This document shows positions 1 through 45,507 of a stretch of 45,507 nucleotides of DNA, piece by piece. The notes under the pieces are model-generated. The model did no database searches. It saw nothing but the letters and a program-made list of their open reading frames with translations, and was not told the origin of the DNA. Within the stretch, counting starts at the first letter, position 1. The number at the start of each line of letters is the position of its first letter. A program made the position numbers and the translations under genes. Source of the DNA: a virus; UHGV virus genome UHGV-0108244. One strand, 5' to 3'.

Positions 1-487
1 TGCCATTTTTTTTTGCTATTAAATTTATTACTTTTGGTAGGTTTCCTGGTAGGTTGCGAGTCAATGGCACGCCTGATGCAATCTTGAGTGCAACGCTTAT
101 TTGCGAGTCAAGCATGGAGACACTAAGATGCCCAGGAAGGAGAAACAAATTATTATTCTGACACTGAAATAGTTTTGCAGTATCGTTATTCACAAGATCT
201 TCAACAGAGGAACCATTCATCAATGTGTCAACGATAGACTCCATTGTTAGGTTGTATCTACTACTATAAAAGTTGTCTAGGCTTTCACTCACTGTTGTGT
301 AACCTAGCACCATGCCAGTTAAGTTGCATTGTGAGTCTAAGTCAACCAGCATTACTTTTTTCCCTGTACTAGCTAGACCCCATCCAATATTAAAGGCTGT
401 GGTTGTTTTGCTTACACCGCCTTTATGATTAAAAAAACAAATTGACTTAGGCATGGGTAATTGATCCTGTGTATTTTCTTCAAACAT
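1..487 (-). CDS. ParA/MinD-family P-loop ATPase, N-terminal part. The gene continues in frame across the window junction into 45507..44888, for an assembled length of about 369 aa.
   Basis: Deviant Walker A FFNHKGGVSKTTTAF near the N-terminus. An AAGGGA SD lies 5 nt upstream of the ATG at 487. The reading frame is open to position 1 with a partial codon that is completed by 45506-45507 (Ile). Confidence 0.8.
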   Translation of the reverse strand, partial: MFEENTQDQLPMPKSICFFNHKGGVSKTTTAFNIGWGLASTGKKVMLVDLDSQCNLTGMVLGYTTVSESLDNFYSSRYNLTMESIVDTLMNGSSVEDLVNNDTAKLFQCQNNNLFLLPGHLSVSMLDSQISVALKIASGVPLTRNLPGNLPKVINLIAKKNG

Positions 488-816
488 AATAATCCCTTTA
501 TTTTATATGAAAACTATGTTAATAGCACTAAAAATTCAATCAGTAATACTGATTATCTTTTCTTCATGCATTTCTTCTGCGGCACCTAAGTGCCTCATCA
601 GGCTACTGGCTTGCTACCCATGCTTCCTGTACGTCTTCGGCATTACCAAAAACACATCGAACTACCGGTCTGACTTATTCAAAGTCATCCCGCTCATCCT
701 TCCGCTTGAAGAAAACTTTATCCAGCCTGAGCACTATCCCAACCAGTCCGATAATCAGCAAAGTAATGAGTATTGGGATAATCAGATCAGACATGCTTCC
801 TCTGCGTGCTAAAGCT

Positions 817-1506
817 TTACCCATGCTTCCTGTACGTCTGCGGCATGCTGCCGATCACCTTGCCGAACACAAACACCCGGTTCATCTCGTCTTTTTCGAT
901 CGGGTCCCAGGCTGCATAGCTCTTGTTATCTGAGATAACCAGCAGCTTGTCTTTCATCTTCTGCAGGCGCTTGACGTGAGCAGTGTCGTCGTACAGGAAC
1001 GCATATATCCCGTCACCGTCAAAGCTCTTAACGCTGATATCCACGAACAGCAGATCACCCGGCTCAATCGTCCCAGACATGCTGTCGCCCCGGACGTTGA
1101 TGATCCGGATGTTCTCAGCCTTGCGCCCATCGAACATGTGGCGCGCTTCCGCTGGCGCATATTCAACGGAGTGGAGAATCTCCACGAACTCCTGATTCAC
1201 AATGCCCGGGCCGGCACTGACGGCCAGATCCAAAATGTCGACCCTGAACACATCATGATTTATGTGTGAAGGCTTCTTGTCATCTTCACCATCAGCCCTC
1301 ATGGCGCCAGTTCCCGAAGAAAGCCACTCAGGTCTCACCCTTAAAGCCTTGGCTATATCGAGCAATTTTGTGGTCTGAGCAGCCCTTCCAGTTTCAATCT
1401 TCTGGATCGCAGCCTGACTAACTCCAACAGCATCTCCCAGAGTCTTCTGGGTCATGCTGGCAGCCTTTCTGGCTTCTCTTAATCGTTCTGCAAGTGTCGT
1501 TTTCAT
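817..1506 (-). CDS. cI: CI-like phage repressor (N-terminal XRE HTH, C-terminal S24 LexA-type autopeptidase).
   Basis: HTH QKTLGDAVGVSQAAIQKIE at the N-terminus. C-terminal GDSM serine motif and a downstream VKRLQK lysine. Divergent from cro. Confidence 0.9.
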   Translation of the reverse strand: MKTTLAERLREARKAASMTQKTLGDAVGVSQAAIQKIETGRAAQTTKLLDIAKALRVRPEWLSSGTGAMRADGEDDKKPSHINHDVFRVDILDLAVSAGPGIVNQEFVEILHSVEYAPAEARHMFDGRKAENIRIINVRGDSMSGTIEPGDLLFVDISVKSFDGDGIYAFLYDDTAHVKRLQKMKDKLLVISDNKSYAAWDPIEKDEMNRVFVFGKVIGSMPQTYRKHG

Positions 1507-1516
1507 CTTCTCAATT

Positions 1517-1583
1517 TACAACCATGGTTTTATAGCGGCAAACGAAAATGGTTGTTGACTAAATACAACTAAGGTTTTATTCT
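1517..1583. promoter_or_regulatory. O_R/P_R region with three related operator-like sites, ACAACCATGGTTTT (1517-1530), AAAATGGTTGTTGA (1545-1558, inverted) and ACAACTAAGGTTTT (1566-1579), plus a P_R candidate (-35 TTGACT 1555-1560, 17 nt spacer, -10 TATTCT 1578-1583).
   Basis: Repeats read directly in the cI-cro intergenic region. AACCATGGTT is a perfect palindrome. Confidence 0.55.
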
Positions 1584-1610
1584 TTGTTTGTATTTACTAC
1601 GGAGGTTGTC

Positions 1611-1844
1611 ATGAACCCAACCATTAAAACCGCAATTAATATTGTCGGCTCTCAGAAAAAGCTTGGTGAAGCCTGCGATGTTTCTCAGCAGGCGGTTTAC
1701 AAGTGGCTCCACAACAAGGCAAAGGTTTCGCCTGAACATGTAAACAGCATCGTAAATGCAACTAATGGGGAGGTTCAGGCGCATCAAATTAGACCAGACC
1801 TTCCAAAACTATTCCCTTCTCCGAAGGGCGTTCCGGCCGCCTAA
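1611..1844 (+). CDS. cro: Cro-like HTH regulator
   Basis: GGAGG SD upstream of the ATG at 1611. HTH LGEACDVSQQAVYKW. Divergent from cI. Confidence 0.75.
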   Translation: MNPTIKTAINIVGSQKKLGEACDVSQQAVYKWLHNKAKVSPEHVNSIVNATNGEVQAHQIRPDLPKLFPSPKGVPAA

Positions 1845-1883
1845 CCAGCGGCCTCCCAATCAACACCAGAGGAAGTATCACAG

Positions 1884-2105
1884 ATGGAGAGTTCAACGAC
1901 ACGCAACAAAGTGGAGGCTCGCAGGATAGAAAGCTGGTTACACAGCCAGATAGCTGAACTGGGGACCACAACTATAGCCAAAGTGGCCGGAGTGAATAAG
2001 TCGACGGTGAGTCGCTGGCGGGAAAACCTGCTGCCGAACATGTCGCTGCTGCTGGCCATCCTGATTTCTAACAGACCGGGAGAGAAAGGTGACTTTGAAG
2101 CATAA
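1884..2105 (+). CDS. cII: CII-like transcriptional activator
   Basis: RIESWLHSQIAELGTTTIAKVAGVNKSTVSRW...MSLLLAIL aligns with lambda CII (RIESALLNKIAMLGTEKTAEAVGVDKSQISRW...FSMLLAVL). Confidence 0.85.
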   Translation: MESSTTRNKVEARRIESWLHSQIAELGTTTIAKVAGVNKSTVSRWRENLLPNMSLLLAILISNRPGEKGDFEA

Positions 2106-2232
2106 GTGGGAACAGAAAGGCGAAAGCCGCAGTGCGCTAACACTAACGGCTTTCAGGTGCAAAAACGAAGAGGTAATTGCGAGGTAATTATGCCTGGTAA
2201 ATCTGTAAGAGTAAACAATCCGGAGGTAGCAC

Positions 2233-2967
2233 GTGAGCATGTCACTTATGGCGAAAGCAATGGGGGTCAAAGTGGGAAACTCACTGCGTAAGCTCGTTCT
2301 TATCAAGCTGGCCGACAATGCCAACGACAAGGGCGAATGCTGGCCTTCGTATCAACACATTGCCGATCAGTGCGAATGCAGCAAATCCGCTGTTCGCAAC
2401 CATATTGATGCGCTTGAGGATATGGGGCTACTCAAGCGTGAAAATCGCGTTGGGGTTAACAACGGGAAAGGTAATACATCCAACGTATATTATCTGAACC
2501 TTGATGCTACCCCTATGCCATCAAAAAGCACAGGGGTATGCCATGAAATAGCACCCCCTATGCCATCTGATGGCACACCCCCTATGCCACCAGATGGCAC
2601 CAGAACCAGTCACTCTTTTGAACCAGTCACTGAACCAGACTCTCTCTCTGCGCGAGGGCAGTTTATCAGCGAGGCTGCAAAGCGACGGATCGGGATTTCA
2701 CCCAACGAGGAAATACCTTTCCCTCCTGCCTTCAAGCCATCGGCAGATCACATTGCGATTGCCTCGGAGAAAGGGATCAACATTGAAACCGAGTTGCTGA
2801 ACTTTCGTGATTATCACCAGGCCCGCGGCACAAAGCTGATCGACTGGAACTCGGCATTCCGGGTATGGCTCAGGAACGCGAGAGTTAATCCGCTTTCCGG
2901 GCGCCAGAGAAGCGAACCTGATTCCCCACACTGGAACAGCCCTGAAGGCTGGAAGGACTTCATATGA
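2233..2967 (+). CDS. Replication initiator, lambda O-like (N-terminal winged helix)
   Basis: GTG start with GGAGG SD. Sits immediately upstream of a P-like gene. A proline-rich repeat segment coincides with DNA iterons. Confidence 0.65.
   Translation: MSMSLMAKAMGVKVGNSLRKLVLIKLADNANDKGECWPSYQHIADQCECSKSAVRNHIDALEDMGLLKRENRVGVNNGKGNTSNVYYLNLDATPMPSKSTGVCHEIAPPMPSDGTPPMPPDGTRTSHSFEPVTEPDSLSARGQFISEAAKRRIGISPNEEIPFPPAFKPSADHIAIASEKGINIETELLNFRDYHQARGTKLIDWNSAFRVWLRNARVNPLSGRQRSEPDSPHWNSPEGWKDFI
2507..2600. repeat. ori-like iterons inside the O-like gene (CCCCTATGCCATC repeated three times, with GATGGCA/TGCCATC inverted elements).
   Basis: Direct repeats at about 2509, 2555 and 2580. Analogous to the lambda ori within gene O. 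Confidence 0.55.
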
Positions 2968-3740
2968 CCGCTCAGCTTATGACCGCGATCAGCAATCGCG
3001 ATGGTGATGCGCTGGCCAGAATGGCCGCAGGTAGCACGGAGCCGCAGAGGCTTCTCGATTTCGAAGCTGAAAGGCTGGTTGACTCCCTGTTCCGTCAGCT
3101 GAAGCAGATCTTCCCGGCGTCAACGCAAACCAATCTGCGCACCGACGCCGAAGAGAAGACAGCGAAGCGCCAATGGATTGCAGCTTTTGCCGAAAACGGG
3201 ATCCGCACCCGCGAGCAGTTATCCGCCGGAGTGCGACATGCGAGAGCCAGCGAATCGCCGTTCTGGCCATCGCCGGGCCAGTTCATCAAGTGGTGCAAGG
3301 ACAGCGGCACCGTGCTGGGAGTGACTCTTGTCGACGTGATGAACGAGTTCCACCGCTACAGCCGTGAAAAAGGGCTGCATACCGGCGGCGCTGAGCGCTT
3401 CCCGTGGTCTCACCCTGTCATGTACTGGGTGGTTACCGATACCCGGCGAGCAATGTACCAGCGCCAGCTCAGCGAGGCAGAAACCGAGAAATATGCCGCT
3501 AAAAAGCTGGAAGACTGGGCGCTGAAAGTCGCCGCCGGAGAACAAATACCGTCGCCGGTACTGGCTCTGGAGAACAACCAGGAAGCCATTCCGACAAACC
3601 ATGTCAGCCGGCAGCAGGGGTTTCACCCTGAAGGCAAAAGCTTCGGATGTATGCCAAGCGCGGCATCGCTCGGTGCGTTAACTCCGGCTCAGTGGCTGCG
3701 GGATGAATACCTGCGCGGGAAAGAGAGAGGGCTTATCTGA
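2964..3740 (+). CDS. Replication protein P-like helicase loader
   Basis: FPAS...RQWIAAFAENGIRTREQLSAGVRHAR...PFWPSPGQFIKWC matches lambda P (FPAS...RQWVLAFRENGITTMEQVNAGMRVAR...PFLPSPGQFVAWC). Confidence 0.85.
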   Translation: MTAQLMTAISNRDGDALARMAAGSTEPQRLLDFEAERLVDSLFRQLKQIFPASTQTNLRTDAEEKTAKRQWIAAFAENGIRTREQLSAGVRHARASESPFWPSPGQFIKWCKDSGTVLGVTLVDVMNEFHRYSREKGLHTGGAERFPWSHPVMYWVVTDTRRAMYQRQLSEAETEKYAAKKLEDWALKVAAGEQIPSPVLALENNQEAIPTNHVSRQQGFHPEGKSFGCMPSAASLGALTPAQWLRDEYLRGKERGLI

Positions 3741-6906: not shown

Positions 6907-7833
6907 ATGCCACAGCAGAGATCGACCTATTTGAGGACAATTCCTCTCGATTTAGAGGTTAAACAAGAAGCGGTAATAAATGGTATTGAGATGGGGGTTC
7001 TTGATAACGGGATTCCATACCTCACACAAAGTGGGCTTGCAAACGTCTGTGGTGTTCAGCGATTAAGGATTAAGGAAATTACTGACGAATGGGCACAGTC
7101 AGTCGAACATGGAATCTTCCGGAAAGGAAGGATGACATTTATTGGTACATACCTTCTGAATGAAGGGTTTACTGATGAAAAATTGTATATCCCGGTCATT
7201 CGCAATGGTGTTGAGTATCATGCTTATCCAGATATCGTCTGCATGGCAATTTTGGAATATTATGCATTCGAGGCTAAGCAGGCTGAAAGTGAAACTGCTA
7301 TCAGATCATACCGTGAACTGGCAAAAAAAGGCCTTAAAGCTTTCATCTATGAAGCTCTAAAATATCAGCCTGAAGACCCATGGCGGCATTATCACGACAG
7401 GGTTTCTCTGCTCAAAGATAAGGGCTCAATCCCTGACGGCTACTTTATCATCTTCAACGAAATTGCAGGTATGATGGTTGATCTTATCAACGCTGGCTTG
7501 GCTATAAACCAGCACACTGTCCCTGATGGAAGTGTCGGAAGTTGCTGGGCTCGCCATTGGAACAGCCAAGAGTTGAGCCGCGAATTTGGTGAACGGGTGG
7601 ATTGTGAGCATTATTACCCCGAAGATTTCCTTCAAGCTCGGTCTAATCCGCAAATAATCAATGCTTATCCTGACGGGGCCCTATCTGAATTTCGTCGATG
7701 GTTCAAACATCAGTATCTTACAACTAAATTCCCTCCGTATATTCTTAAAAAGTCAAATGTACTTCCTGGGGGGAGAGAAGACGCCACTCGCTTGATCGAG
7801 GCATTTAAACAGGCAGGTATCGAAGGTAAATAA
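6907..7833 (+). CDS. Moron: 308 aa protein with a probable N-terminal Bro-N/KilA-N-like domain (antirepressor-like) and a C-terminus of unknown function.
   Basis: Lies in an AT-rich island with an upstream 8-bp inverted repeat (AGGGTGTT...AACACCCT) and a downstream hairpin. The N-terminus IEMGVLDNGIPYLTQSGLANVCGV resembles the Bro-N pattern. Confidence 0.5.
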   Translation: MPQQRSTYLRTIPLDLEVKQEAVINGIEMGVLDNGIPYLTQSGLANVCGVQRLRIKEITDEWAQSVEHGIFRKGRMTFIGTYLLNEGFTDEKLYIPVIRNGVEYHAYPDIVCMAILEYYAFEAKQAESETAIRSYRELAKKGLKAFIYEALKYQPEDPWRHYHDRVSLLKDKGSIPDGYFIIFNEIAGMMVDLINAGLAINQHTVPDGSVGSCWARHWNSQELSREFGERVDCEHYYPEDFLQARSNPQIINAYPDGALSEFRRWFKHQYLTTKFPPYILKKSNVLPGGREDATRLIEAFKQAGIEGK

Positions 7834-10139: not shown

Positions 10140-10276
10140 GCCGTGACGTTATCGAACGCATCCGCGACCGTTGGCAAAAGCTCCGCCTCTGCCGGCACCG
10201 CGGCACCGTACTGGTTGACTACCGCATACTGAGAAATTTCGTTCGCATCTATCAGACCCTGGGAGAGACAGCATGA
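10136..10276 (+). CDS. Small hypothetical protein, 46 aa
   Basis: Coupled ORF between rusA and Q. Confidence 0.3.
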
Positions 10277-10773
10277 AACTGGAATTAACCAACGAACAGC
10301 ACCAGTGGATAGATCAGTGGCTCCAGCTTTGGGGCGCATGGTGCCAGACAGGGAAGATAGACAAGGCGATGATAAATATGATCGCCAAGTTCATGGCCAC
10401 CGTTGAGCCGCAAGCACCATCAAGGCCTGTATGCAGCGATGATGATGGGTTGCTGATTGATGCCGTCATCCGACATTACCTGAAAAACGTAGATGAGAAC
10501 GCATGGAAGGTGATTTTTGCCTATTACGTCTGTAACTCAAGCGAGATAAGGATCGCTTCATGGCAGCATGCTGTGAGCAAACCTCGCCTGATGAAGACCC
10601 GCGCCGGAAACCAGTATAAGCACCCGAGCATTTCAACCATCCGCCGGGAAGTTAAGCAGGTTATCAACGCGGCACTCTTTTGCCTGTACCAGCCGCTGCA
10701 AAATGCGTTTAACGATCGCGAAAGTGTGAGGAAAATTGCAAAAAATAGTCATAACGTGCTTGCATTTCAATGA
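10273..10773 (+). CDS. Q: Late-gene antiterminator Q-like
   Basis: WLQLWGAWCQ motif. Position immediately upstream of the terminator and lysis genes. Confidence 0.6.
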   Translation: MKLELTNEQHQWIDQWLQLWGAWCQTGKIDKAMINMIAKFMATVEPQAPSRPVCSDDDGLLIDAVIRHYLKNVDENAWKVIFAYYVCNSSEIRIASWQHAVSKPRLMKTRAGNQYKHPSISTIRREVKQVINAALFCLYQPLQNAFNDRESVRKIAKNSHNVLAFQ

Positions 10774-11538: not shown

Positions 11539-11763
11539 ATGTATCGCATGGAAAAGATAACCACTGGTGCTGCCTATGGCGCTTCAGCCGGGAGCATCCT
11601 TAACGGCATGCTAAATGCCTATAGCCCCGAGCAGTGGAATGCCATCGGCGTACTGGTGGGCATTGTCATCGCCGTACTTACGTATCTGACGAATTTGTAC
11701 TTCAAGATTCGCGAAGACAATCGACGTAGCAGGAGCCGAGATGAACCCGACGCTGAGGAATAA
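11539..11763 (+). CDS. Holin
   Basis: [13 protein letters not shown]...[17 protein letters not shown] matches an enterobacterial phage holin family. One or two TM segments. Confidence 0.75.
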
Positions 11764-12235
11764 GCTGATTGGTGCGATCGCCGGCGGTTCGGGCGCGATA
11801 GCCATTGCTTCCGTCATGCTTGGTAATGCCGACGGCCTGGAAGGAAGGCGTTATTACGCCTATCAGGATGTTGTCGGCGTCTGGACTGTTTGTGATGGTC
11901 ACACTGGCGCTGATATTCGCCGCGGCCACCGTTACACCGACAGAGAATGCGACAACCTGCTGAAGGCAGATCTGCGGAAGGTGGCAAGTGCAATTGACCC
12001 GCTTATCAAAGTCCGCATTCCTGATCCTACCCGCGCCGCGCTTTACTCATTCACCTACAACGTTGGCTCTGGAGCTTTCGCCAGTTCCACGCTGCTGAAG
12101 AAACTGAATGCTGGAGATGTGCCGGGCGCGTGCAAGGAACTGCAGCGCTGGACGTATGCCGGTGGCAAGCAGTGGAAGGGACTGATCACCAGGCGCGAGA
12201 TTGAGCGTGAAGTCTGCGAGTGGGGCCAGAAATGA
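11741..12235 (+). CDS. SAR endolysin (GH24 T4-like lysozyme with N-terminal signal-anchor-release domain)
   Basis: [22 protein letters not shown] segment; catalytic E...D...T context [22 protein letters not shown]. Confidence 0.85.
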
Positions 12236-19945: not shown

Positions 19946-19956
19946 GGAAAACAAGA

Positions 19957-31127: not shown

Positions 31128-31149
31128 GGTTTTTTAATGGGTGAATATT

Positions 31150-31648: not shown

Positions 31649-31670
31649 TGCCGCAGCCGCGGCATTTTTT
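31649..31670 (+). terminator. Hairpin TGCCGC-AGCC-GCGGCA-TTTTTT followed by the conserved ATGCCCGGAG junction
   Basis: Read directly from the sequence. Confidence 0.55.
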
Positions 31671-31685
31671 ATGCCCGGAGGAAAC

Positions 31686-32162: not shown

Positions 32163-32632
32163 TGCCGACATTGAGAGAGTGGAAGGAGCGCCGGCCGGCG
32201 AGCGATATCAAACAGACGGTGGAATTTTATCATCCTGCGTTTGGTTATTACCGGGTGGTCAATAACCTGTTTCGCCCGGCGACGTTTGGTGGCAACTCAT
32301 TCGAGCCTGCGCGGTTCAGCGTAACAGAACCGGCGCAGGACGGAACGGCAGTGATATCCATGACGATCACCTTTGTCGCTGCGACGGAGCATGTCCGGCA
32401 GACACTGAAAAGCTGGCGCGGGGCGGCGCGTATGACGCCGATAAAGTGCCTGTATCAGCAGTGGAATGCGATCGGTGATGCATCATCCCTGAAAGACTGG
32501 ACGCTGTATGTGAGTGACATCTCTGCTGACGCAAACAATGTGACGGTTGACGCCGGGTTCACCAACCCTTTGACGCTAGCCAACCCGATTATTTACACAA
32601 CAGAACTTTATCCAGGACTGAAAACTTCATGA
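32162..32632 (+). CDS. Minor tail protein
   Basis: Coupled ORF (ATGA overlap). Confidence 0.5.
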   Translation: MPTLREWKERRPASDIKQTVEFYHPAFGYYRVVNNLFRPATFGGNSFEPARFSVTEPAQDGTAVISMTITFVAATEHVRQTLKSWRGAARMTPIKCLYQQWNAIGDASSLKDWTLYVSDISADANNVTVDAGFTNPLTLANPIIYTTELYPGLKTS

Positions 32633-33024
32633 CGCAAGACGAATTTATCCGGCTTGTTACCGGCAAGCCTTGGGCTAACCGCTCCTGCAGTTTTGGCTCG
32701 ATGGATTGTTGGGCGCTGGTTGTTCTGTATTACCGGCATGTGCTGGGAATTGAGTTGCACCATATTCCAGCGTATGAAGCCGGGGCTGACTTCATTACTT
32801 GCCATGAGCAGGAGGTGGAGCATTGGAGAACGATACCAGCAGCGGTGTCGGGTTGCATTGCGGTTTTCTATCGTGGTGAAGTCCCGGCGCATATTGGCGT
32901 AATGACAAGCCCCGTTAAGTGCCTGCATTCCCGTGGGGAGTTTGGTTTCGTGCGCAGCGACAACCCGCTGGCGCTTCTTAAAGTATACAGCCGCGTGGAG
33001 TATATGGTGCATGGTTCGATATGA
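32629..33024 (+). CDS. NlpC/P60 cysteine peptidase tail protein (gpK-like)
   Basis: Conserved Cys (SMDCWALV) and His (HIGVM). Confidence 0.7.
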   Translation: MTQDEFIRLVTGKPWANRSCSFGSMDCWALVVLYYRHVLGIELHHIPAYEAGADFITCHEQEVEHWRTIPAAVSGCIAVFYRGEVPAHIGVMTSPVKCLHSRGEFGFVRSDNPLALLKVYSRVEYMVHGSI

Positions 33025-35482
33025 ATTACAACGCCTTCCTGGCGCGCCAAAGCATCGTGGAGTTGCGGAGGAAGGAACGCCGCTAGCTGAGTTACTTGAT
33101 TCTCTGAATTTGCACAATGATGTGGTAGTTAAGCTTAACGGCAGAGAACTTGATGACGACTTCGAGATAACTTATCCGCTGTGCAGAAATGATGTAGTCC
33201 TTATATTCGACCAGCCTGAGGGTGGGGTAGGGAAACTGATCAACACCATATTACGACCGGTCACAAAAATTCTCTCTGGCGCAATGAAATTGCTCGGTCT
33301 TGCACCAAAATCCGGAGGCGTTTCTGTTGCAACTGGAGAGTCGCCCAACAATGATGTCACCCAGCAGACCAACCGGGCCCGTCTATATAAAGGGAGGCCG
33401 AATATTTATGGTCAAGTACGAGCCTATCCAGACCTCATACAGGAATCGATGTTTGAATACATCAGTAATAATAAAATGGTTACAGAGTGGATGGAGATAG
33501 GCTATGGACACTACAATATTTCATCAGTGCGTTATTCCGAATCTTCTCTGGTAGCTATGGCCGGCGCCAGCTATGAAGTTTATCATCCAGGCACGGTAAT
33601 ACCAGAGATTATTCAGGGATATGCCTTTGACGATGTTGATGGGCAGGAGCTTCCTGGCACCAACGAGCAGACATCAAATATCGTTAATCAAGCCACGACG
33701 AATAATTTGCTGGCTGGTAGTTTCGCTGGAGGCCAGTTTTATGCAAAAATTGAAAAACAAAATGAGTTTGATGTTTTCTATGACTCTCCAAAACCATTTT
33801 CGGTCACAATCACTGTAAATGTGTCATATAATACAGCCAGTGGGCTGGTAACAAAAAACATTAATGTATCTGCTAGTTTGTTTAACTCTGCGCTATCAGA
33901 TGATGGGACACTTATCGATCCGCAACAATTCTATGAGTTTTGGTTTAACTATTTGTCTGGTCCAGACTTTGAGGGATTGCCAGCAGACGCCACGGTAAAC
34001 AGCACTCTTTTCACTCTGACTCAGTATTCGACTATTGCGGTTGGGCCATTTTTTGCGGCGCTCCCTGGTGATCAGCTTTGGGTGCACCTCTACGCGAATG
34101 AAGCTGGCGGATATGACGGGCCTGCCCGTATCACATGGTGGCAGGTCGACACCGATAACAACCAGATACCTGGTACCGAAGAGAGCATTGATGTAAACGT
34201 GCATAACGATGGAGGCAATCAGGATTACATTTACCGGACATACAAAATAACACCAGGTGCGGGTTTTGGACGTTATGCCTTTAGAGCTGAGCGAACCAAT
34301 AACTCGGCCAGCAACTCAGTGCTGTATTTGTCCGGCGCGCATGCTGTAACCATCCGTAAAAACGTAGTATATACCGATGACACAATTGTCAGGGTCACTG
34401 TCAGACAGACGGAAACACAGACTGTAGCGTCAGATCGTAAATATAACTGTCTTGTGCAGAGGAGGGTCATATCATGGACGCCAAGCGGCATTGACTTTGC
34501 ATTGCGGCCCAGCAGGTCATTTGCTGACGCCGTACTACATGAGTGGGTGATCATTGGCAAACAGGATCCATCCAGGCTTGATTTACCTTCGCTTTACGCC
34601 ATTAAAGACTCGCTGCCAGATGCTCAGCTAGGTTATTTTGACTGGACATTTTCCGATGAAAATCAGCCGCTAGGTGAGCGAATACAGACTATCTGTAACG
34701 TAGCTCGCGTTAATTTTAACTGGATCGGTGATGTTCTTACGTTCTGGCGTGATGAAAGGGTTTCTAACCCAGATGCGGTTTTCGCCCGTTCGAATATGTT
34801 CTGGGAAGATTACAAGTTGTCATGGAAAATGTCTTTACCTGGTGGGTATGACGGCGTGACGCTCGACTACGTCGACCCTTCAACTAACAAAAAGACCTAC
34901 ATATACCTAAGCGTGGGCACCTCCGGAATAAGTGAAGTTTCCGACGCTACTGTTAACGCGATGCAGATCAGCCTGGACGGCTGCCGCAACGCCACTCAGG
35001 CAACCGATCGGGCCTGGCTTGAGGCGAGGAAAATCCTTTACTCACGCCTGACCATGACAGTGAAAGTGCTGGAGTCGACGCAGGTGGTGCGCGGTACGGT
35101 GGTTCAGTGTCCGGACATGTACGACAACGCGCAGCAAACCGGCTACATCACAGGGCGATCCGGGGATGTGTTCTCGACCTCTGAACGAATCGACTTTTCC
35201 CTCGGCGATATGTGGGTGGTGATGACCGACAGCCTCGGAAATTACCGCGGGCGCTGGCGAGCTTATCCGGTAAGTGGCAAGCCCAAAGCATTCCAGGCTG
35301 CAGCCGATACCTTCGATCTGAACATTTATGACCGCAGCAGGGTGCAAAACCCCAGCCGGTATTTCATCGCTACCGACTCGGAACTCAACTCCACAATCTG
35401 GCGCGTCGATAGCGCAAAACCAAACGGTGACGATACTCAAACGCTATCCCTGACTGAGTATTCAGACTCGATTTATCAGTAA
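33011..35482 (+). CDS. Tail-tip host-specificity protein (TipJ/gpJ-like with gpI-like N-terminal region)
   Basis: 823 aa. The N-terminus resembles lambda I. Follows the NlpC/P60 gene. Confidence 0.55.
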   Translation: MVRYELQRLPGAPKHRGVAEEGTPLAELLDSLNLHNDVVVKLNGRELDDDFEITYPLCRNDVVLIFDQPEGGVGKLINTILRPVTKILSGAMKLLGLAPKSGGVSVATGESPNNDVTQQTNRARLYKGRPNIYGQVRAYPDLIQESMFEYISNNKMVTEWMEIGYGHYNISSVRYSESSLVAMAGASYEVYHPGTVIPEIIQGYAFDDVDGQELPGTNEQTSNIVNQATTNNLLAGSFAGGQFYAKIEKQNEFDVFYDSPKPFSVTITVNVSYNTASGLVTKNINVSASLFNSALSDDGTLIDPQQFYEFWFNYLSGPDFEGLPADATVNSTLFTLTQYSTIAVGPFFAALPGDQLWVHLYANEAGGYDGPARITWWQVDTDNNQIPGTEESIDVNVHNDGGNQDYIYRTYKITPGAGFGRYAFRAERTNNSASNSVLYLSGAHAVTIRKNVVYTDDTIVRVTVRQTETQTVASDRKYNCLVQRRVISWTPSGIDFALRPSRSFADAVLHEWVIIGKQDPSRLDLPSLYAIKDSLPDAQLGYFDWTFSDENQPLGERIQTICNVARVNFNWIGDVLTFWRDERVSNPDAVFARSNMFWEDYKLSWKMSLPGGYDGVTLDYVDPSTNKKTYIYLSVGTSGISEVSDATVNAMQISLDGCRNATQATDRAWLEARKILYSRLTMTVKVLESTQVVRGTVVQCPDMYDNAQQTGYITGRSGDVFSTSERIDFSLGDMWVVMTDSLGNYRGRWRAYPVSGKPKAFQAAADTFDLNIYDRSRVQNPSRYFIATDSELNSTIWRVDSAKPNGDDTQTLSLTEYSDSIYQ

Positions 35483-35568
35483 CACACGGCAGTAATTACC
35501 AACCTTCGCGCACACCATCAGATTAATTTCTGAGGGTTTCGTGCGCCTTTTATAGGGCGACATGCACA

Positions 35569-37752
35569 ATGGCAGAAGTACCGTTACCAACTCCAACCGA
35601 CAACCCGGTACCCAGCACTGATATCCGGGACGCAGTTTATGCAGGCGCCATGCTGGATAAAGTTGTCACCAGTACAGAGCTGACATACACCGATCGCCTC
35701 GGCGGAGAGCACTACACCGTAGACGGAATTAAGGCGGAAGGGGATAAAGTCGTTGAAGAAACGCGACAGAACCTGATCCCTCTTAGCCGGCAGTATATGA
35801 CCTTAGCGGAAGCGCAAGCGGATATCGCTAATATTCCAGAAGGCAGCAGCACCTATGTGCGTAGCCAGGACAGCAGCGCGCTGGCTGACGAGTACATGAA
35901 TGTGGCTGGGACGCTGACAGCAACCGGGCGTAGAATGCCTTCTCAAGCGGCCATCCAGGCAGTTCTTGACTATATCTCATCTCTCATTGCTACTGATGAT
36001 GCTGATTCTCCTTTACTGACACTTAATGATGAGGCGGGGTTTCGTCTGGCGGCATTCGGCCTGAATGCAATTCAGAGCAATGCGATGACGGCTGAGTATG
36101 ATGAGTTTATTGATGGTTTTGTGTTCCGGGATAGCGTCGGATTCGTTATTCAGCAAATAGGGGCTCCTCTGCTCAGCTCTGTTGACAGTGTTCAGCCTGT
36201 CGTTGAGCAGCAGCGATTGGTGACTGAGGCATTCAGTGCTGAATCTGACGCGGATATTTCTGGTTTTGTATTTCGCGACAGTGTGGGATTTGTCCTGATG
36301 AATCTCAATGGTGAGCAAAGCGATCAGAATAACGATGGGGGAGATGACATTTCACGCAGAAATGCAGCAAATCTGGCCGCTGCTGCTGCCGCACGAGACG
36401 AAATTAATACGCGTATTGCTCGGCCGGTTTACGATTACAATATTCTGATCACAGACGGCCAGTCGCTGAGTAACGGGAATGAGGGATGGGCTGCACTGAG
36501 CAAGGACATTCGCGCTACTCTGAACATTAATATGCTCGGTGACTCCGTCCGGCCAAAAAATGAGAATGGTTCAACATTTACGCCGTTGAACGGAGCTGAA
36601 ATCAGATCAGCCCGTGCGGTGGTGCAGGATTTAATCGCCCCTCCTGACGGCGGAAACCTTATGACCGATGAGGCTGTGGCCGCACTGCCTCGTGGGGCTA
36701 ACAATTTCGGTGAAACCGTCGATATTGGCGCGATGTGGATGTGGCGGGAAATGCAGTTACAGTTCCGGGGAGTGGTAACGGATGAGCGCAAAATTGTGGC
36801 TGTGAACTGCGGTGTGGGCGGGCAGATTATTGAACATCTCTCTAAAGGCCATTCCTGGGGATTCTACAACCGGATCATTTCAGCCGTTACCCAGATTAAA
36901 GCCATTGCTGATGCCGAAGGTAAAACCTGCGGCGTGGTGGGTTTTTTATATCTTGGCAATGAATATAACTATGACAGCACAAAAGGAGGGGCGACAGACC
37001 GCGCAGAATACAGAGCACTCCTGAGAAAGCTCATTGATGATGTCATTACCGATACTACCGCTATCACCGGGCAGACAGAGCCCCCCCTGACTGTGCTGTA
37101 TCAGACCAGCGGCAGCTGGACGCGCGACAGCACGAATATGAGCATTGGCGAGGCTCAGCTCGATATCTGTGCAGCAGATGCAAACGTAATGATGGCATCA
37201 CCGGCGTATGCTGTCACCGACAAGGGTGGCCATCTTGACGCGAACGGCTACCGCTGGCTGGGAATGCAGTTCGGAAAAGTGCTCCATCGTGCAATTGATC
37301 GTCGCCAGAACTGGCGTCCACTGCAACCCCTGTCAGTCACGCTGAGCGGAACATTCCTGCGTGCGGATTTCCTGGTGTGGAGCCCGCCGCTTCAGTTTCG
37401 ATCATGCTACGTGGGTTCATCTCCGACGACGTATGCCGCAAAAGGATTCAGAGTCACTGACGATGCCGGGGACGTTCCGGTGACGCGTGTCGAAATTGTA
37501 GCCGATACCGTAGTCGATATTACGCTGGGGCGTGAAACGACCGGCGATGTTTATCTATGGTACGCCAGCCAGACCGGAAGTAACGGTAACGGAAATCTGT
37601 TTGACAGCGACACAACGGTCGCTGTTGCGAATTACGAATTTCATGAAGGGACAGGGCAATATCCGGAATCAAATATTCCAGAGCTGGTAAACCGTCCATA
37701 CCCACTGAATAACCCCTGTGTGGCATTTCGTCGCCAGGCAATCGCTATTTAA
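35569..37752 (+). CDS. Tailspike/tail fibre protein with SGNH/SASA-type carbohydrate esterase domain
   Basis: NILITDGQSLSNG (GQS block I) and GGHLDANGYRWLG (DxxH block V). Internal duplicated GFVFRDSVGFV segment. Confidence 0.6.
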   Translation: MAEVPLPTPTDNPVPSTDIRDAVYAGAMLDKVVTSTELTYTDRLGGEHYTVDGIKAEGDKVVEETRQNLIPLSRQYMTLAEAQADIANIPEGSSTYVRSQDSSALADEYMNVAGTLTATGRRMPSQAAIQAVLDYISSLIATDDADSPLLTLNDEAGFRLAAFGLNAIQSNAMTAEYDEFIDGFVFRDSVGFVIQQIGAPLLSSVDSVQPVVEQQRLVTEAFSAESDADISGFVFRDSVGFVLMNLNGEQSDQNNDGGDDISRRNAANLAAAAAARDEINTRIARPVYDYNILITDGQSLSNGNEGWAALSKDIRATLNINMLGDSVRPKNENGSTFTPLNGAEIRSARAVVQDLIAPPDGGNLMTDEAVAALPRGANNFGETVDIGAMWMWREMQLQFRGVVTDERKIVAVNCGVGGQIIEHLSKGHSWGFYNRIISAVTQIKAIADAEGKTCGVVGFLYLGNEYNYDSTKGGATDRAEYRALLRKLIDDVITDTTAITGQTEPPLTVLYQTSGSWTRDSTNMSIGEAQLDICAADANVMMASPAYAVTDKGGHLDANGYRWLGMQFGKVLHRAIDRRQNWRPLQPLSVTLSGTFLRADFLVWSPPLQFRSCYVGSSPTTYAAKGFRVTDDAGDVPVTRVEIVADTVVDITLGRETTGDVYLWYASQTGSNGNGNLFDSDTTVAVANYEFHEGTGQYPESNIPELVNRPYPLNNPCVAFRRQAIAI

Positions 37753-38951: not shown

Positions 38952-40115
38952 TTACGCAAGTTTCAAACCAGCCTGATTTCCTCCTTGTGTCGTATTTGTG
39001 TCGCTAGCGCCAAAAATGGCGTCAATTTTCCGTGCATGTTCGGTCAGGTGGTTCGGTGCCAGGTGAGCATAACGACGCACCATCTCGATGCTTTCCCATC
39101 CTCCCATTTCCTGTAAAACAGAAAGCGGGACGCCGGACTGGATCAGCCAACTCGCCCAGGTGTGCCGAAGGTCGTGAAAACGGAAATCCTCGATCCCCGC
39201 TTTTTTCAACCCGGCGCGCCAGGCGTTATTGTCATCCACCCGCATTTTTCTAACTGCGGGCGTTAGTGTTCCATCCGGGCGATGTTTTGCCGTGGTGTGA
39301 ACGAACACCCATCGGGAGTGCTTCCCTATCTGATCCCTTAATACCCTGCATGCGGTATCATTCAGAGCTACGCCTATCGCCTTGCCCGCTTTTGCGTTCT
39401 CCGGATTTACCCATGCAACCTTTCTCTGCATATCGACCTGCTGCCACTCAAGCCCGATGATGTTTGAGCGGCGCAGGCCGGTTGCCAGTGCAAATATCAC
39501 CACTGGCTTAATGCTCTCCGGCATGCACTCGATCAACCGCTCAGCTTCTTCTCTGGTCAGCCACCGTATCCGCTTACTGATCGGCTTGCGGGTTTTGATA
39601 ACAGGGGCTGTTTTTATCCAGCCCCAGTCATTCGCCGCGGCCCTGAGAAGGGAGCGAATGAAGGAAAGGTGTTGAGCCTTCGTAGCCTGCGAAACCTGCC
39701 GTGGTTTGTACTCCGGAACCGGCTTTCCCTTCCTCATCGCGGCATCACGCTTACTCTCCCAGACCTGCAGGTGTTTACGGTTGATCATCCCGTTAACGGC
39801 TTCGTGAACTTCCTCCGCCGTTATCTTCGAGACATCACGGCCGGAAAAATGCTGCAGCCAAAACTCAATTTTGGTTTTGTCATCATCCAGCGATCGCTTA
39901 TGGTCCTTTTCCCGCAACCACCGGATACAGCATTCTTCGAAGGTTCTGACGGGCAGATCGCCGATCTGGTCAACCCGCCACGCTTCCGCCTTCAGCTTGT
40001 CGTGGAGCTCCTGAGCCTGCTTTTTGTCCCCCGTGCCAAGAGATCGCCTAACTCTTTTTCCTGACGGCGTAAAGAAATGACAGTGCCACACGCCGCCCCT
40101 GAGGGTGATTGACAT
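38952..40115 (-). CDS. int: Tyrosine integrase
   Basis: [39 protein letters not shown] (R-H-R-Y catalytic set). Confidence 0.95.
38984..39008. repeat. attP P'-arm: two TTGTGTCG copies (inverse of the P-arm repeat) within the int 3' end
   Basis: Read directly from the sequence. Confidence 0.45.
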
Positions 40116-41702: not shown

Positions 41703-42265
41703 GCTGCCTCCAGATTCCCGATCCGCTTTAACTCAGCCAGCGATAAGGACGTAATGATGTGTCGCGGGGTGATGTACGGGCGCCAGATAAACAGGATCGA
41801 GCCTTTAGGGTTGCTCATGCGCTTTCCTGTAACAGATGCCGGAACAAACTGAACACGGCCGCCAGTTATGAGCCTGAGTTCATCAGCTGATTGCATGGCT
41901 GAAATAAACCAGCCAGTAGAGATGTCAGCCGGTAGCAACATCACTACGACCTGAGACTGCGCCCGGGATTGCTCAGCAGCTTTTTCCACCCACGGCCCAA
42001 TATTGGAATAGGGAGGGTTACACCAGATCGCCCCGTATGACGTCCATTCGCTGTTCAGCGAGTCATCCAGCTCAGTGAGATAGTGAGCGCATAGCGCGTT
42101 ACTCTCAGAGGCTGCAGCATCCAGCCAGAAGCCAAACTCGCGGTCGAGCGCGTTGAAAATTTCAATCGGCGTTTGCCAGTAGTCACGTTCATTTTTTGGA
42201 GTTTTCGATCCGCCATAATCAGTCATTGCGCACCTCGTTTCGTGTCTGCCTTTCTCATGCGGCAT
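41699..42265 (-). CDS. Phage N6-adenine DNA methyltransferase (Dam_2 family)
   Basis: YWQTP...FWLDAAASESNALC...WCNPPYS motifs. Confidence 0.7.
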   Translation of the reverse strand: MPHEKGRHETRCAMTDYGGSKTPKNERDYWQTPIEIFNALDREFGFWLDAAASESNALCAHYLTELDDSLNSEWTSYGAIWCNPPYSNIGPWVEKAAEQSRAQSQVVVMLLPADISTGWFISAMQSADELRLITGGRVQFVPASVTGKRMSNPKGSILFIWRPYITPRHIITSLSLAELKRIGNLEAA

Positions 42266-42878
42266 GGTCGTGGTTTTTTATGCTGGAAATCTCTTTCTCC
42301 AGCTCTTCCAGAAACTTTTTCACTTCGGACTGAATCTCATTTGCCAGTGCTTCGTCGAAGTGAATGCGCTTTTTGAAATAGGCGAGGTCTGGCGGTAGAC
42401 GATCGTCGAAACTAACGAAATCACACCATTTACGCCCTGTGCACATCATCTGAGCGTGCATCTGCAGCAAGTACTGACGTTTTGGCTCGCCAGTTTTTAA
42501 GGTCTCAAGATGAGTCCAGGTGTTGGGGCACTTAATTTCGATAAGTCCATCACCATTAACAAGCCCATCAGGACTTGCTGCGAATCCTGGTATAGTTGGG
42601 TGATCGATAAGCCCCACCTCGGTGATTTCGGCATCGAACTCATTCAGCGCATACATTTCGCGCGCTACTGGCTCGAGTTCTGTTCCGCGTATCATTGCGG
42701 CGTTGGAGAAACCTTCTTCAAGCTTCCCGGTGAGGCGCTGGCAAATCAGCTCGGCCATGTAGTTCTGTCGGCTTGCTGCATAGCCAGACTTGGTTCTGGC
42801 CATGACGTCAGCAAGGCGGCTGGCTGTGACTTTTCCGCAGCGAGCGGCAAACCATTCTGGGGTGCGTTGTTCCATCAT
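42255..42878 (-). CDS. YqaJ-type recombination exonuclease
   Basis: MEQRTPEWFAARCGKVTASRL...KCP signature. Confidence 0.8.
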   Translation of the reverse strand: MMEQRTPEWFAARCGKVTASRLADVMARTKSGYAASRQNYMAELICQRLTGKLEEGFSNAAMIRGTELEPVAREMYALNEFDAEITEVGLIDHPTIPGFAASPDGLVNGDGLIEIKCPNTWTHLETLKTGEPKRQYLLQMHAQMMCTGRKWCDFVSFDDRLPPDLAYFKKRIHFDEALANEIQSEVKKFLEELEKEISSIKNHDHAA

Positions 42879-43621
42879 TTATCCTCCGTCGCTGCGGCAT
42901 CGACAGGTTCTGCGTTGTCTACTGCAAGACTCATGTCATACATGCGACGCTTCTCAACCGCGCCGATAACTTGTTTCTCTTCTGCGCTTAACGCCACCCA
43001 GAATTCCTGATACTTAACAGTTCCAAGGCGTGCGGCAGACTCGCCTTTTGCGATCAGTTCCGGGCGGCGACTATCAGATTCATGCCCTACATGAACCTCT
43101 GCCGCACTCCCTTCAATCACACGCTCGGCTTCGTCCTGATCGAAGATGCCAGCAAACCCAAATGCGAGACGCGCACACTGGATCAGCGTCTTGTGACGAA
43201 GCATACGGGTAGGGTGGGACTGCCATGGCTGAGTGTTGCGTTTACACTCTCCCATGTACTCAGTAACGATGGTCGGGTGTGTGCGGTCTTTCCGGTATAT
43301 CTTGCAGGTACACGCGCCTTCTTCCTTGTCGTAGGAAAACTCCATTCCATCAAACTGAGGATGTTCGTTGATGATTCGAGCCCAGCCATCAACGCCGACA
43401 ACCGGAACAATTCCGCCTTTATCCGGGAATGCATAAATCTCTTTCGTCCACGGATTTAGTCCGTACTGGTTGGCGACGATCAGCAGTGCCGTGAACTGCT
43501 CATCAGTGACATTCCCACCCTTAAATGCTGTATTTTTCAGAGTGTTCATCAGGTCAGTTCCGGCATCCATGCCGAGGCGGGAGGCAAGCTTCCCGGCCAT
43601 TGTAGAAAGTGCTGTGCTCAT
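42875..43621 (-). CDS. recT: RecT/Bet-family single-strand annealing protein
   Basis: Paired with the YqaJ exonuclease. Conserved GVDGWARI core. Confidence 0.75.
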   Translation of the reverse strand: MSTALSTMAGKLASRLGMDAGTDLMNTLKNTAFKGGNVTDEQFTALLIVANQYGLNPWTKEIYAFPDKGGIVPVVGVDGWARIINEHPQFDGMEFSYDKEEGACTCKIYRKDRTHPTIVTEYMGECKRNTQPWQSHPTRMLRHKTLIQCARLAFGFAGIFDQDEAERVIEGSAAEVHVGHESDSRRPELIAKGESAARLGTVKYQEFWVALSAEEKQVIGAVEKRRMYDMSLAVDNAEPVDAAATEDK

Positions 43622-44209: not shown

Positions 44210-44312
44210 TGAACACCCCCGTAACGTGCAGAATTTTGATAATCAACGCTGTCCAGATAACGCCGCAGATCAGCAGGCAGTAAATCAGTGAACGAAGGCC
44301 ATTTCTGCTCAT
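44202..44312 (-). CDS. Small hydrophobic peptide, 36 aa (MSRNGLRSLIYCLLICGVIWTALIIKILHVTGVFNG)
   Basis: GGTGG SD. Predicted single TM. Confidence 0.35.
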   Translation of the reverse strand: MSRNGLRSLIYCLLICGVIWTALIIKILHVTGVFNG

Positions 44313-44425
44313 GCTGAACCACCAGGCATCAGGCAGAACGCGCTTGCTATCAGTACGCATACGACGATGGCGAATGCGTGTGCCAGAAACTTAAACCACT
44401 CAGTTTTATCTTCTTCGCGGATCAT
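44309..44425 (-). CDS. Small hydrophobic peptide, 38 aa (MIREEDKTEWFKFLAHAFAIVVCVLIASAFCLMPGGSA)
   Basis: AAGGTGA SD. First ORF downstream of the presumed P_L. Confidence 0.35.
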   Translation of the reverse strand: MIREEDKTEWFKFLAHAFAIVVCVLIASAFCLMPGGSA

Positions 44426-44508
44426 CTCTTCACCTTTGCCTTATCGCGGCTAACGGGACGTTTTGACTTCACCCCGGCGTTGCCGGTGTTGTTTGGATGA
44501 GTCAATTT

Positions 44509-44588
44509 AAAACCATAGTTGTTTTGTAGTCAACAACAATAGTTGTTTAAATGGCTGGAATGGTTTTATTTAGTTGTTTTTATTGGTT
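44509..44588. promoter_or_regulatory. O_L/P_L candidate region: AAAACCATAGTTGTTTT, CAACAACAATAGTTGTTT and TTTAGTTGTTTT share the O_R half-site
   Basis: The half-site ACAACCAT/ATGGTTGT from O_R recurs here. Located between the leftward early genes and the immunity region. Confidence 0.45.
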
Positions 44589-44645
44589 ATTTATTTTTGT
44601 AAAGCGTGCTGGTAAGCTCAAAAAAACGCCAAAGAGGGTAGCGCC

Positions 44646-44849
44646 ATGTCGAATGAGGATGAGTTTTTCGCAGAGATGCACCCGCAGATTGCGCAGGTTA
44701 TCGGGATAGCGGTTATGCAGCTGCTGGTTGAGAAGCGCGAGCCATCAAGAGAGGCGCTGATAGAGATGATTCAGGTGTTGTGGCAGGGTGGCCAGGTAGA
44801 TCTGGCAGTAGAGCTTGCACTGGATGTGCTGATGCTGAGGGAAGAGTAG
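44646..44849 (+). CDS. Small acidic hypothetical protein, 67 aa, convergent with the ParA-like gene
   Basis: AGAGGG SD. Followed by a shared hairpin. Confidence 0.4.
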   Translation: MSNEDEFFAEMHPQIAQVIGIAVMQLLVEKREPSREALIEMIQVLWQGGQVDLAVELALDVLMLREE

Positions 44850-44861
44850 GACAGTAAAAAC

Positions 44862-44879
44862 CCGGCGCGGTGGCCGGGA
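44862..44879. terminator. Hairpin CCCGGC-GCGGTG-GCCGGG between the convergent 3' ends
   Basis: Read directly from the sequence. No strong T-run. Confidence 0.35.
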
Positions 44880-44887
44880 TTGAGTAT

Positions 44888-45507
44888 TTAAGCGGTTAAA
44901 ATCAGTACACGTTGGCAAAGTCTTTCAAATTGCTGGAGGAAAAGATTTCTATTCTCACTCATCGTATCAAACACGTTACCCGCCTTCCCATCATCTCTCA
45001 AATCTTGATCAGTGATAGCAAAAACCGGTTTTGAGAGCTTTTGGCTTATTGCAATTAAAGAATTGAAATCTGATATTTGCGCAAGGTCATAGGCCTTCAG
45101 ATGCGACGTATCTGTCAAATCGAGAGATTTTTGTATTTCATGCTCGGTTGCTGAGCAACCAATACGATGGAGAGCGGGAGCCAGTACACTATTTACTGCG
45201 CCGTGAATCTCTTTAACCCAATGTTCAAACGATTTAACTGGCATTCCATTTCGTGGCCTGTAACGCTGATGTATCGCGCCAATGAACTTAGGTTTATTTG
45301 AAATATTTGCGGCAGTATTGGATCGAGAAGTTTGTTTGAAAAACTCTAACTCAGCATGCCATGCAGTGATTGTTTCAGAAAGAGAATTTATCGCTTGCCA
45401 ACAGAAGAAGTCAGGAGTCGCTGGAACAATAAAGTAATCACTTGACATAAGTGCTATTTCATTTAACCCACCGACACTTGGGCTTAAATCATAAACTATA
45501 TAATCGA
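44888..45507 (-). CDS. C-terminal part of the same ParA-like ATPase (ParA motif IDYIVYDLSPSVGG...SDYFIVPATPDFF plus a ~150 aa C-terminal extension).
   Basis: The frame is open from 45507 down to the stop at 44888. The supplied ORF begins at an internal Met (45448), but the upstream codons NG-IDYIVYDLSPSVGGLNEIAL join seamlessly to the fragment at the window start. Confidence 0.75.
   Translation of the reverse strand, partial: DYIVYDLSPSVGGLNEIALMSSDYFIVPATPDFFCWQAINSLSETITAWHAELEFFKQTSRSNTAANISNKPKFIGAIHQRYRPRNGMPVKSFEHWVKEIHGAVNSVLAPALHRIGCSATEHEIQKSLDLTDTSHLKAYDLAQISDFNSLIAISQKLSKPVFAITDQDLRDDGKAGNVFDTMSENRNLFLQQFERLCQRVLILTA

Follow-up and report, generated by a model that had tools for sequence, protein, structure and literature searches.

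The stretch of DNA analysed here, virus genome UHGV-0108244 (45,507 nt; "the window" is this whole stretch at its full length), is best explained, with a probability of about 0.85, as a full-length, unintegrated copy of a lambdoid Klebsiella siphovirus that was opened arbitrarily inside a solo ParA-like gene, itself a putative conflict cargo. The joining of position 45507 to position 1 is real sequence, and the gene for a ParA-like ATPase of 368 amino acids (aa) is split between the two ends of the window. An earlier reading of the same letters (the original prediction) had called the window a complete circular replicon. Of this claim the closed assembly stands, whereas the "replicon" is a temperate phage genome and not a plasmid, and its physical form is not readable from sequence: what is proved is a circularly closed assembly, and the molecule behind it may be an excised circle, circularly permuted virion DNA or a concatemer. 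An assembler or a database would have opened the circularly closed phage sequence at an arbitrary base, which by chance lay inside a gene; arbitrary linearisation is routine for circularly closed phage assemblies, and there is nothing unusual at the ends.

Joint of the window ends and attachment site

The two parts of the ParA-like coding sequence (CDS) are the following:

1..487, minus strand: 5' part, codons 1-162 and the first base of Ile163
44888..45507, minus strand: 3' part, with the rest of Ile163, the Walker B Asp169, the helical C-terminal third and the stop (44888-44890)

The minus-strand open reading frame (ORF) that starts with the ATG at 487-485 stays open to position 1, and its 487 bases are enough for 162 codons with a single base left over. 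That base, the complement of position 1, is completed to ATC by the complements of 45507 and 45506, so that Ile163 is the codon that is cut; from there the frame is open through 45449-45507 into the listed ORF 44888..45448, down to the TAA stop at 44890-44888; the listed ORF is only the part of the gene that follows an internal ATG (from M183). The joined CDS is 1,107 nt long, which is divisible by 3, and encodes 368 aa plus the stop. The Walker B Asp (DYIVYD169) follows the joint by six codons, and over the joint the protein reads ...PKVINLIAKKNG-I-DYIVYDLSPSVGGLNEIALMSSDYFIVPATPDFF..., as the original prediction had quoted it. By our own estimate, a random frame of 369 codons would stay open with a probability of about (61/64)^369, that is ~2e-8, and a lower one at 39% GC. 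The original prediction had thus been right on the partial codon left at position 1, on its completion as Ile by bases 45506-45507, on the frame that runs on into 44888..45448 and on the ParA motif rebuilt over the joint.

Its further claim, that 45507 must be joined to 1, was borne out by sequences from elsewhere. The protein annotated at NCBI as "ParA family protein [Klebsiella pneumoniae]" (P0002) is 368 aa long as well and differs from the joined product by a single residue (G250E). It is encoded by K. pneumoniae GCA_019927305.1 (L003) in an integrated prophage, whose integrase gene has opp-type ABC transporter genes of the host next to it. The alignment of L003 to the rotated window is a single one of 3,461 bp (97%), from window position 2154 via 1/45507 to 44203, and its central 1,200 bp over the joint have 99.83% identity with 0 gaps; the absence of gaps means that the joint has neither lost nor gained a base. 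The original prediction had proposed to look for a frameshift or a stop once true flanking sequence was appended, and L003 runs through the joint. The exact 40-mer that spans the junction is present in 6 IMG/VR contigs (4.4-49.9 kb), all of which align through the joint, and the annotated relatives ST11-VIM1phi8.2, ST101-KPC2phi6.1 and NCTC418 "plasmid 3" are collinear through it, with other cargo between the same flanks. We searched the window ends for terminal direct repeats of 5-400 nt and found none. Because the window ends do not overlap by 5 nt or more and no gap appears with respect to an uninterrupted homologous locus, the window is exactly one unit length.

The arrangement of the phage attachment site (attP) was examined with respect to the following two features:

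38892-38936, plus strand: attP common core of 45 nt, equal to the part of the K. pneumoniae tRNA-Arg(UCU) from the anticodon loop to CCA
38952..40115, minus strand: tyrosine integrase (PHROG/Pfam)

Just beyond the integrase stop the sequence reads GGTTCGAATCC...GCCA, and ARAGORN calls no tRNA there. A prophage of K. pneumoniae strain 176 (L012) shares the integrase module and abuts a complete tRNA-Arg(UCU) next to folD. The identity between the window and L012 spans the anticodon loop to CCA and then continues into the integrase side, whereas to the left of 38892 there is phage DNA in the window and the 5' half of the tRNA followed by host DNA in L012; as this identity breaks exactly at 38892, we placed the core at 38892-38936. 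Matches to prophage-derived sequence stop exactly at 38892. A 40-mer of the P-arm plus part of the core, which was found in 65 contigs, was considered non-discriminating, because the attR of integrated prophages holds the same string; the exact 71-mer that spans P-O-P' was found in only 2 contigs, both of them metagenome viral. The intact P-arm, the 45-nt tRNA-Arg core and the P'-arm adjoin the integrase gene, and host flanks are absent. At the level of sequence this supports an excised or virion arrangement of the window and not that of an integrated prophage. The internal integrase/attP pair with phage genes on both sides had been pointed out before, together with its reading as a virion or excised circle, and both agree with the intact attP and with the host DNA that replaces the P-arm in L012. 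Judging the life cycle from the gene set, phage DNA would circularise after injection, the tyrosine integrase would use the 45-nt core to insert it into the host gene for tRNA-Arg(UCU), at the 3' end, and the cI repressor at the right and left operators (oR and oL) would maintain lysogeny.

The genome is 45.5 kb long with 51.9% GC, and its relatives, which are collinear with it, are 44-48 kb long. Module identities were obtained from PHROG and Pfam scans of the window proteins, and matches were found for every lambdoid module, namely replication, Q, lysis, terminase, portal, head, tail, integrase and recombination. The genes found make up a complete phage, completeness being judged from gene content. 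By megablast the relatives are Kp4856-1, 2b LV-2017, ST101-KPC2phi6.1, vB_Kpn_RAH1 and NCTC418 "plasmid 3", with 86-98% identity in blocks; the best relative reaches a coverage of only 45% over the first 25 kb (94% identity), and over the second half no record exceeds 74%. Lambdoid Klebsiella phages have the same module order and a variable slot after cI, and several of them share the attP/integrase module and the tRNA-Arg site. By its sequence, the phage is a new mosaic combination of known modules in a well-known group. The window can be used as a complete, circularly closed phage genome, in which the two "truncated" ORFs at the ends are to be merged into one gene.

The ParA-like gene, its slot and its homologues

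Since the oR/pR and oL/pL regions share operator-like repeats, the two window ends form one immunity region. Promoters and terminators in it were assigned by consensus scans only. From the left operator to cro the features are as follows, the ParA-like gene lying between the terminator and the 49-aa ORF:

44504..44570, minus strand: candidate left promoter and operator (pL/oL), with repeats AACCATAGTTGTTT / AACAATAGTTGTTT and a promoter-like TTGACT-18-TAAATT
44646..44849, plus strand: convergent 67-aa gene (phrog_3946, function unknown), left border of the variable slot
44861..44878, minus strand: terminator-like GC hairpin followed by TTTTT, 10 nt past the ParA-like stop
675..824, minus strand: optional 49-aa ORF with a hydrophobic central stretch, directly downstream of cI
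817..1506, minus strand: cI-type repressor, helix-turn-helix (HTH) plus S24 peptidase (PHROG/Pfam)
1517..1583: right operator and promoter (oR/pR), with repeats TACAACCATGGTTTTAT / TACAACTAAGGTTTTAT and a plus-strand promoter-like TTGACT-17-TATTCT
1584..1844, plus strand: cro-like repressor (PHROG/Pfam)

Both GTTGTTGACTA (the -35 context) and ATGGTTTTAT are common to 1517-1583 and 44504-44570. In lambda the layout is cI-rexA-rexB-tImm ... pL, and the order in the phage matches it, with the terminator-like hairpin in the position of tImm. The ParA-like gene stands in the same place as rexA-rexB, between cI and pL, on the cI strand and with a terminator after it; the difference is that lambda has a two-gene pair and the phage a single gene for a ParA-fold ATPase, for which no exclusion phenotype is known. 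Lying on the same strand just downstream of cI, the ParA-like gene would most likely be co-transcribed with it in lysogens.

The slot between these borders holds different genes in the relatives: RexA/RexB in ST101-KPC2phi6.1, a different ParA-like gene of 358 aa in ST11-VIM1phi8.2 and in two PLSDB records, HigB/HigA plus a hypothetical gene in NCTC418, and three hypothetical genes in K. pneumoniae strain 176. The 67-aa phrog_3946 gene is kept in the Klebsiella relatives whatever the cargo. The ParA-like cassette has 39.2% GC, against 51.9% for the genome; the listed relatives in the phage collection lack this cassette at the nucleotide level, and it is carried by six IMG/VR contigs and by L003. 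The slot is a variable cargo hotspot, and the ParA-like gene is probably accessory cargo. On its right border, a direct repeat of 29 nt occurs at 615-643 and 818-846 (28/29 identical) and corresponds to the last codons of cI; the copy at 615..643 is the border itself, where homology to the relatives begins. The IMG/VR contig L015 has a single copy of the repeat and lacks window positions 644-817, that is most of the 49-aa ORF. From these sequences, the repeat looks like a recombination boundary of the mosaic.

As regards the protein, the deviant Walker A motif KGGVSKT is at residues 22-28 and the Walker A' motif DLD at residues 49-51. Pfam matches are to P-loop NTPase families only, namely AAA_31 (E 6e-29) and CbiA, over residues 14-249. 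Residues K22, G23, G24, K27, T28, D49, D51 and D169 are invariant in 54 homologues, and on these motifs the protein is very probably an active dimerising ATPase. The AlphaFold2 (AF2) model (predicted local distance difference test, pLDDT, 84.8; predicted template modelling score, pTM, 0.88) consists of a ParA core and a helical C-terminal third, and Foldseek assigns to it the ParA/Soj/MinD fold with probability 1.00 (template modelling score normalised to the target of 0.7-0.78 for Soj). In both sequence and structure comparisons with the PDB, the uncharacterised DIP2308 of 361 aa (3pg5) came first, ahead of Soj, ParA, MinD and McdA. With the type I partition ParA proteins (Soj, P1 ParA, ParF) it shares the fold, the deviant Walker A KGGxxK[ST], the Walker A' and the Walker B; it differs from them in being ~100 residues longer, with the helical C-terminal third outside the Pfam coverage, in having no adjacent ParB gene and in scoring below all the NCBIfam partition cutoffs. 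No NCBIfam model reaches its cutoff, the partition models (ParA_partition, RepA, PrgP) included, the best being ParA_partition with 52.6 bits against 180, in a match confined to residues 16-54 (the P-loop). The label "ParA-like" of the original prediction is therefore right for fold and motifs, and not for the properties of a partition ParA. Among the PADLOC-DB v2 models there was no significant full-length match, and the only hits, to the candidate system PDC-M28B, were weak and limited to the P-loop (32 bits, residues 9-51).

Relatives of the protein, conserved over their full length, were found in at least 554 species genomes, ranging from Proteobacteria to Firmicutes, Cyanobacteria, Chloroflexi and Acidobacteria. 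In Salmonella the homologue (61% identity) occupies the same slot in several prophages with different integrases and insertion sites, in the order cI, ParA-like gene, convergent small gene, kilR/gam/recT. In Pseudomonas capeferrum the gene stands directly after the S24 repressor gene, with a different integrase; in Chromobacterium it is beside Arc and antirepressor genes, and in Campylobacter it lies within a prophage. Megalodesulfovibrio gigas (L023/L024, 1-8726) has a solo ParA-like gene in a P4-like island with genes for Int, AlpA, DUF3987 and a primase zinc-ribbon protein, and directly downstream of it there are HicA/HicB and DarT/Macro (DarTG-like) genes. Satellite hotspots of this P4-like kind are known to collect defence systems. 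In Mannheimia the gene shares an island with genes for a ParE toxin and a RepB primase.

A neighbour coding for ParB or for another centromere-binding protein was found neither in the window nor in ~100 homologous loci, the check covering L003, Salmonella, Mannheimia, Chromobacterium, Campylobacter, Pseudomonas, Megalodesulfovibrio and 80 species loci. A ParB-type HTH protein (PF17762) of L003 was rejected as a partner, as it is on the opposite strand, ~1.7 kb away and next to O in the replication module, and the window has nothing corresponding to it beside the ParA-like gene.

For the analysis of neighbours, all the ORFs >=60 aa from 80 diverse species loci were clustered. Most of the recurrent "neighbour" clusters were discarded, since they consisted of antisense shadow ORFs within the ParA-like gene. 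One real recurrent neighbour was left, a gene of ~200 aa on the same strand that overlaps or abuts the stop of the ATPase gene and is translationally coupled to it (16/80 loci):

~5035-5700, plus strand: coupled gene in L136, L141, L143, L154-L158, L160-L164, L166, L168 and L170

All the 16 loci belong to the branch with 35-41% identity to the phage protein, which includes Dehalococcoidia, Terriglobia, Pandoraea and cyanobacteria. Three of the coupled partners were tested, and they matched PF18735 (RiboL-PSP-HEPN) with 30.7-45.9 bits against a cutoff of 28.4, all of them carrying RRNxIAHE. Dyads of a ParA/Soj-like ATPase and a HEPN protein (MAE_18760) have been predicted to be toxin-antitoxin systems with the ATPase as the antitoxin (Anantharaman et al. 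2013, PMC3710099). The loci found here are similar to them, in that full-length homologues of the phage protein are coupled to RiboL-PSP-HEPN genes; the HEPN family named for the published dyad is MAE_18760, the one matched by the partners of the distant homologues is PF18735, and both functions are predicted. The pair of ATPase and HEPN genes is a candidate two-gene toxin-antitoxin or abortive-infection system, absent from PADLOC v2. The phage copy and all the homologues with >=47% identity are solo, without a HEPN gene; downstream of the ParA-like gene in the window there are a terminator and a convergent gene instead.

Among the other neighbours, the linked downstream genes of L113-L115, L123, L127 and L095 matched no Pfam family, and those of L100 and L097 were taken as unrelated, being housekeeping-like by eye (polyprenyl synthase-like and shikimate kinase-like). 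The downstream partner of ~310 aa in L123 (5050-5985) and L127 (5042-5974) ends in an Rx4H-like RNDAIHNG and would be a possible second effector of the HEPN type, with an unknown N-terminal domain fused to it. A search of the literature on ParA-like prophage genes and superinfection exclusion, on anti-phage ParA-like ATPases and on RiboL-PSP returned nothing on the family; the only related cases were the orphan ParA-like gene of Gifsy-1 and the predicted ParA/Soj-HEPN dyad.

Weighing of the readings

Because the slot alternates with RexAB and HigBA, the cassette is low in GC, ParB is missing and homologues have toxin or HEPN genes as neighbours, a conflict-related role of the ParA-like gene (exclusion, defence or counter-defence) is the one to which we give about an even chance. 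The ATPase would then act as an accessory cargo in inter-element conflict and not in partition of the plasmid type. More tentatively, and with odds somewhat against it, the solo ATPase may represent an unrecognised pan-bacterial family of mobile-element cargo, solo or coupled to HEPN, that acts in such conflicts. If this were true, the gene could be a single-gene exclusion or defence factor in lysogens, or an orphan "antitoxin-like" ATPase; in the latter case it would neutralise ParA-HEPN abortive-infection modules of the host and would be a counter-defence gene. With a defence or counter-defence function, the ParA-fold ATPase would be a further entry in the catalogue of prophage conflict systems, and this would explain why pipelines label integrative prophages as carrying "partition" genes. 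The lead is a widespread, uncharacterised ParA-fold ATPase in the rexAB position of Klebsiella, Salmonella and Pseudomonas lambdoid prophages.

We regard as unlikely that the ATPase modulates the phage's own lysis-lysogeny switch or the physiology of the host, being neither a defence nor a partition factor. Its position directly downstream of cI, in the immunity region, would suit such a role. A precedent is STM14_3218 of the Salmonella prophage Gifsy-1, an orphan ParA-like gene in the immunity region that has no ParB, is strain-variable and is not induced by mitomycin C; the three-gene region STM14_3218-3220 moderates phage yield and triggers RtcR, effects that are regulatory and physiological (PMC9879122). 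RexA, a further precedent, biases the lambda switch and does not need RexB for its action on it (PMC11077077). However, STM14_3218 is 840 bp long (~279 aa), against 1,107 bp in the phage, it is a member of a three-gene cassette and not solo, and the two were likened by description only. Moreover, the family is also found outside immunity regions (in satellites, non-phage islands and HEPN dyads), which argues for a function independent of the switch.

Very unlikely, in turn, is a phage-plasmid whose circular prophage is partitioned by the ATPase as an extrachromosomal replicon, like P1, N15 or SSU5. The ParA/Soj fold with its intact deviant Walker A would fit this, as would the fact that related Klebsiella lambdoids are in PLSDB as circular "plasmids", of which two hold a ParA family gene in the slot; but induced phage DNA in the sequenced cultures would readily explain these records. 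Besides the lack of a ParB neighbour and the ParA_partition score, which comes from the P-loop only, no parS-like array was found within ~1.6 kb on each side of the gene (only the operator repeats and the 29-nt duplication), a search that a distant or degenerate parS could escape. In addition, the integrase and attP look functional, K. pneumoniae chromosomes carry relatives with the same integrase module inserted at tRNA-Arg, and the slot is interchangeable with RexAB and HigBA.

The least probable alternative is that the window is one exact repeat unit of a tandem polylysogen or of a replication or packaging concatemer and not a free circle: in both arrays attP would be intact and the ParA-like gene would run on uninterrupted from unit to unit, and the Terminase_2 (SPP1-like) small terminase is compatible with headful packaging from concatemers, but an exact unit length with no base missing or duplicated is what circular-contig trimming is expected to give and would be a coincidence for a cut array, and there is no host sequence anywhere in the window. 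What remains of the weight on the role of the gene was left unassigned.

Several points weigh against the reading of the window as a full-length, unintegrated phage copy opened inside a solo conflict-cargo gene. One exact unit cut from a tandem double lysogen or from a concatemer would look identical in sequence. No whole-genome match in the phage collection exceeds 45% coverage, so that "complete" lacks an identical reference, and the large terminase, which we compared with Pfam and PDB sequences for typing as cos or headful, gave no match; the small subunit alone was placed among the terminases, in Terminase_2. As for the cargo, its co-expression with cI rests on a predicted promoter and terminator from consensus scans, the HEPN partner occurs only in the 35-41% branch and never in the phage branch, and the conflict role is guilt by association, with only weak, P-loop-limited matches to PDC-M28B in PADLOC.

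Modules of the phage and further observations

The other features identified in the window were the following:

2233..3740, plus strand: replication module, with an O-like initiator (2233-2967) and a P-like helicase loader (2964-3740) (PHROG/Pfam)
6907..7833, plus strand: full-length BstA homologue in the nin region (phrog_6287, E 8.6e-130)
10273..10773, plus strand: Q-like antiterminator (PHROG/Pfam)
10949-11268, plus strand: four tRNA genes (Asn-GTT, Phe-GAA, Thr-TGT and Arg-TCT), just downstream of Q
11741..12235: endolysin (PHROG/Pfam)
13452-13979, plus strand: small terminase of the Terminase_2 family, SPP1-like (Pfam)
13979-15451, plus strand: large terminase
15464..16927, plus strand: portal (PHROG/Pfam)
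16860..17861, plus strand: head-morphogenesis protein (PHROG/Pfam)
within the head block 15464..20988, plus strand: phrog_760 protein
19957..20988, plus strand: capsid-like virion structural protein (PHROG/Pfam)
28458..31109, plus strand: tape measure, in the tail module 28458..37752
32933..35482, plus strand: tail protein (annotation of the corresponding gene in the relative L004: TipJ family)
35569..37752, plus strand: tail fibre (PHROG/Pfam)
42255-42878, minus strand: 207-aa ORF, probably a YqaJ-type exonuclease, from the aligned YqaJ gene in L003
42875..43621, minus strand: Bet-like annealing protein, in the early-left recombination genes 42255..43621 (PHROG/Pfam)

BstA is a prophage abortive-infection protein, and its homologue at 6907-7833 is a second defence-type cargo gene in the phage. 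Between the head and tail genes, at 25457-26799, there is a secondary immunity module similar to the immI of P22, with a Bro-N/P22_AR_C antirepressor at 26095-26799 and with Arc-family DNA-binding genes, the latter by the annotation of the 98% identical NCTC418 record. The phage has its own tRNA-Arg(UCU), and it would also integrate into the host tRNA-Arg(UCU) gene. The position of the rightward 67-aa gene, between the slot and pL/oL, is unusual; Salmonella has a similarly placed counterpart of 68 aa, regardless of the cargo.

Protein P0001 (ENA, 472 aa), from a contig of 3.2 kb, has the same ParA-like sequence, with 100% identity over the aligned part. Its N-terminus is an unrelated stretch of ~105 aa with an extra Pfam domain, PF22746, and represents either a chimeric assembly or a real fusion.

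Lambdoid Klebsiella phages are present in PLSDB as circular "plasmids" among the records CP026278.1, NZ_CP146029.1, NZ_CP084855.1, NZ_CP077781.1, CP089956.1, NZ_CP127232.1, NZ_LR134212.1 and CP125156.1, which are listed together with a mislabelled chromosome, one of 5.37 Mb carrying the label of plasmid. Such records look like artefacts of assembly or labelling, and they could mislead replicon typing.

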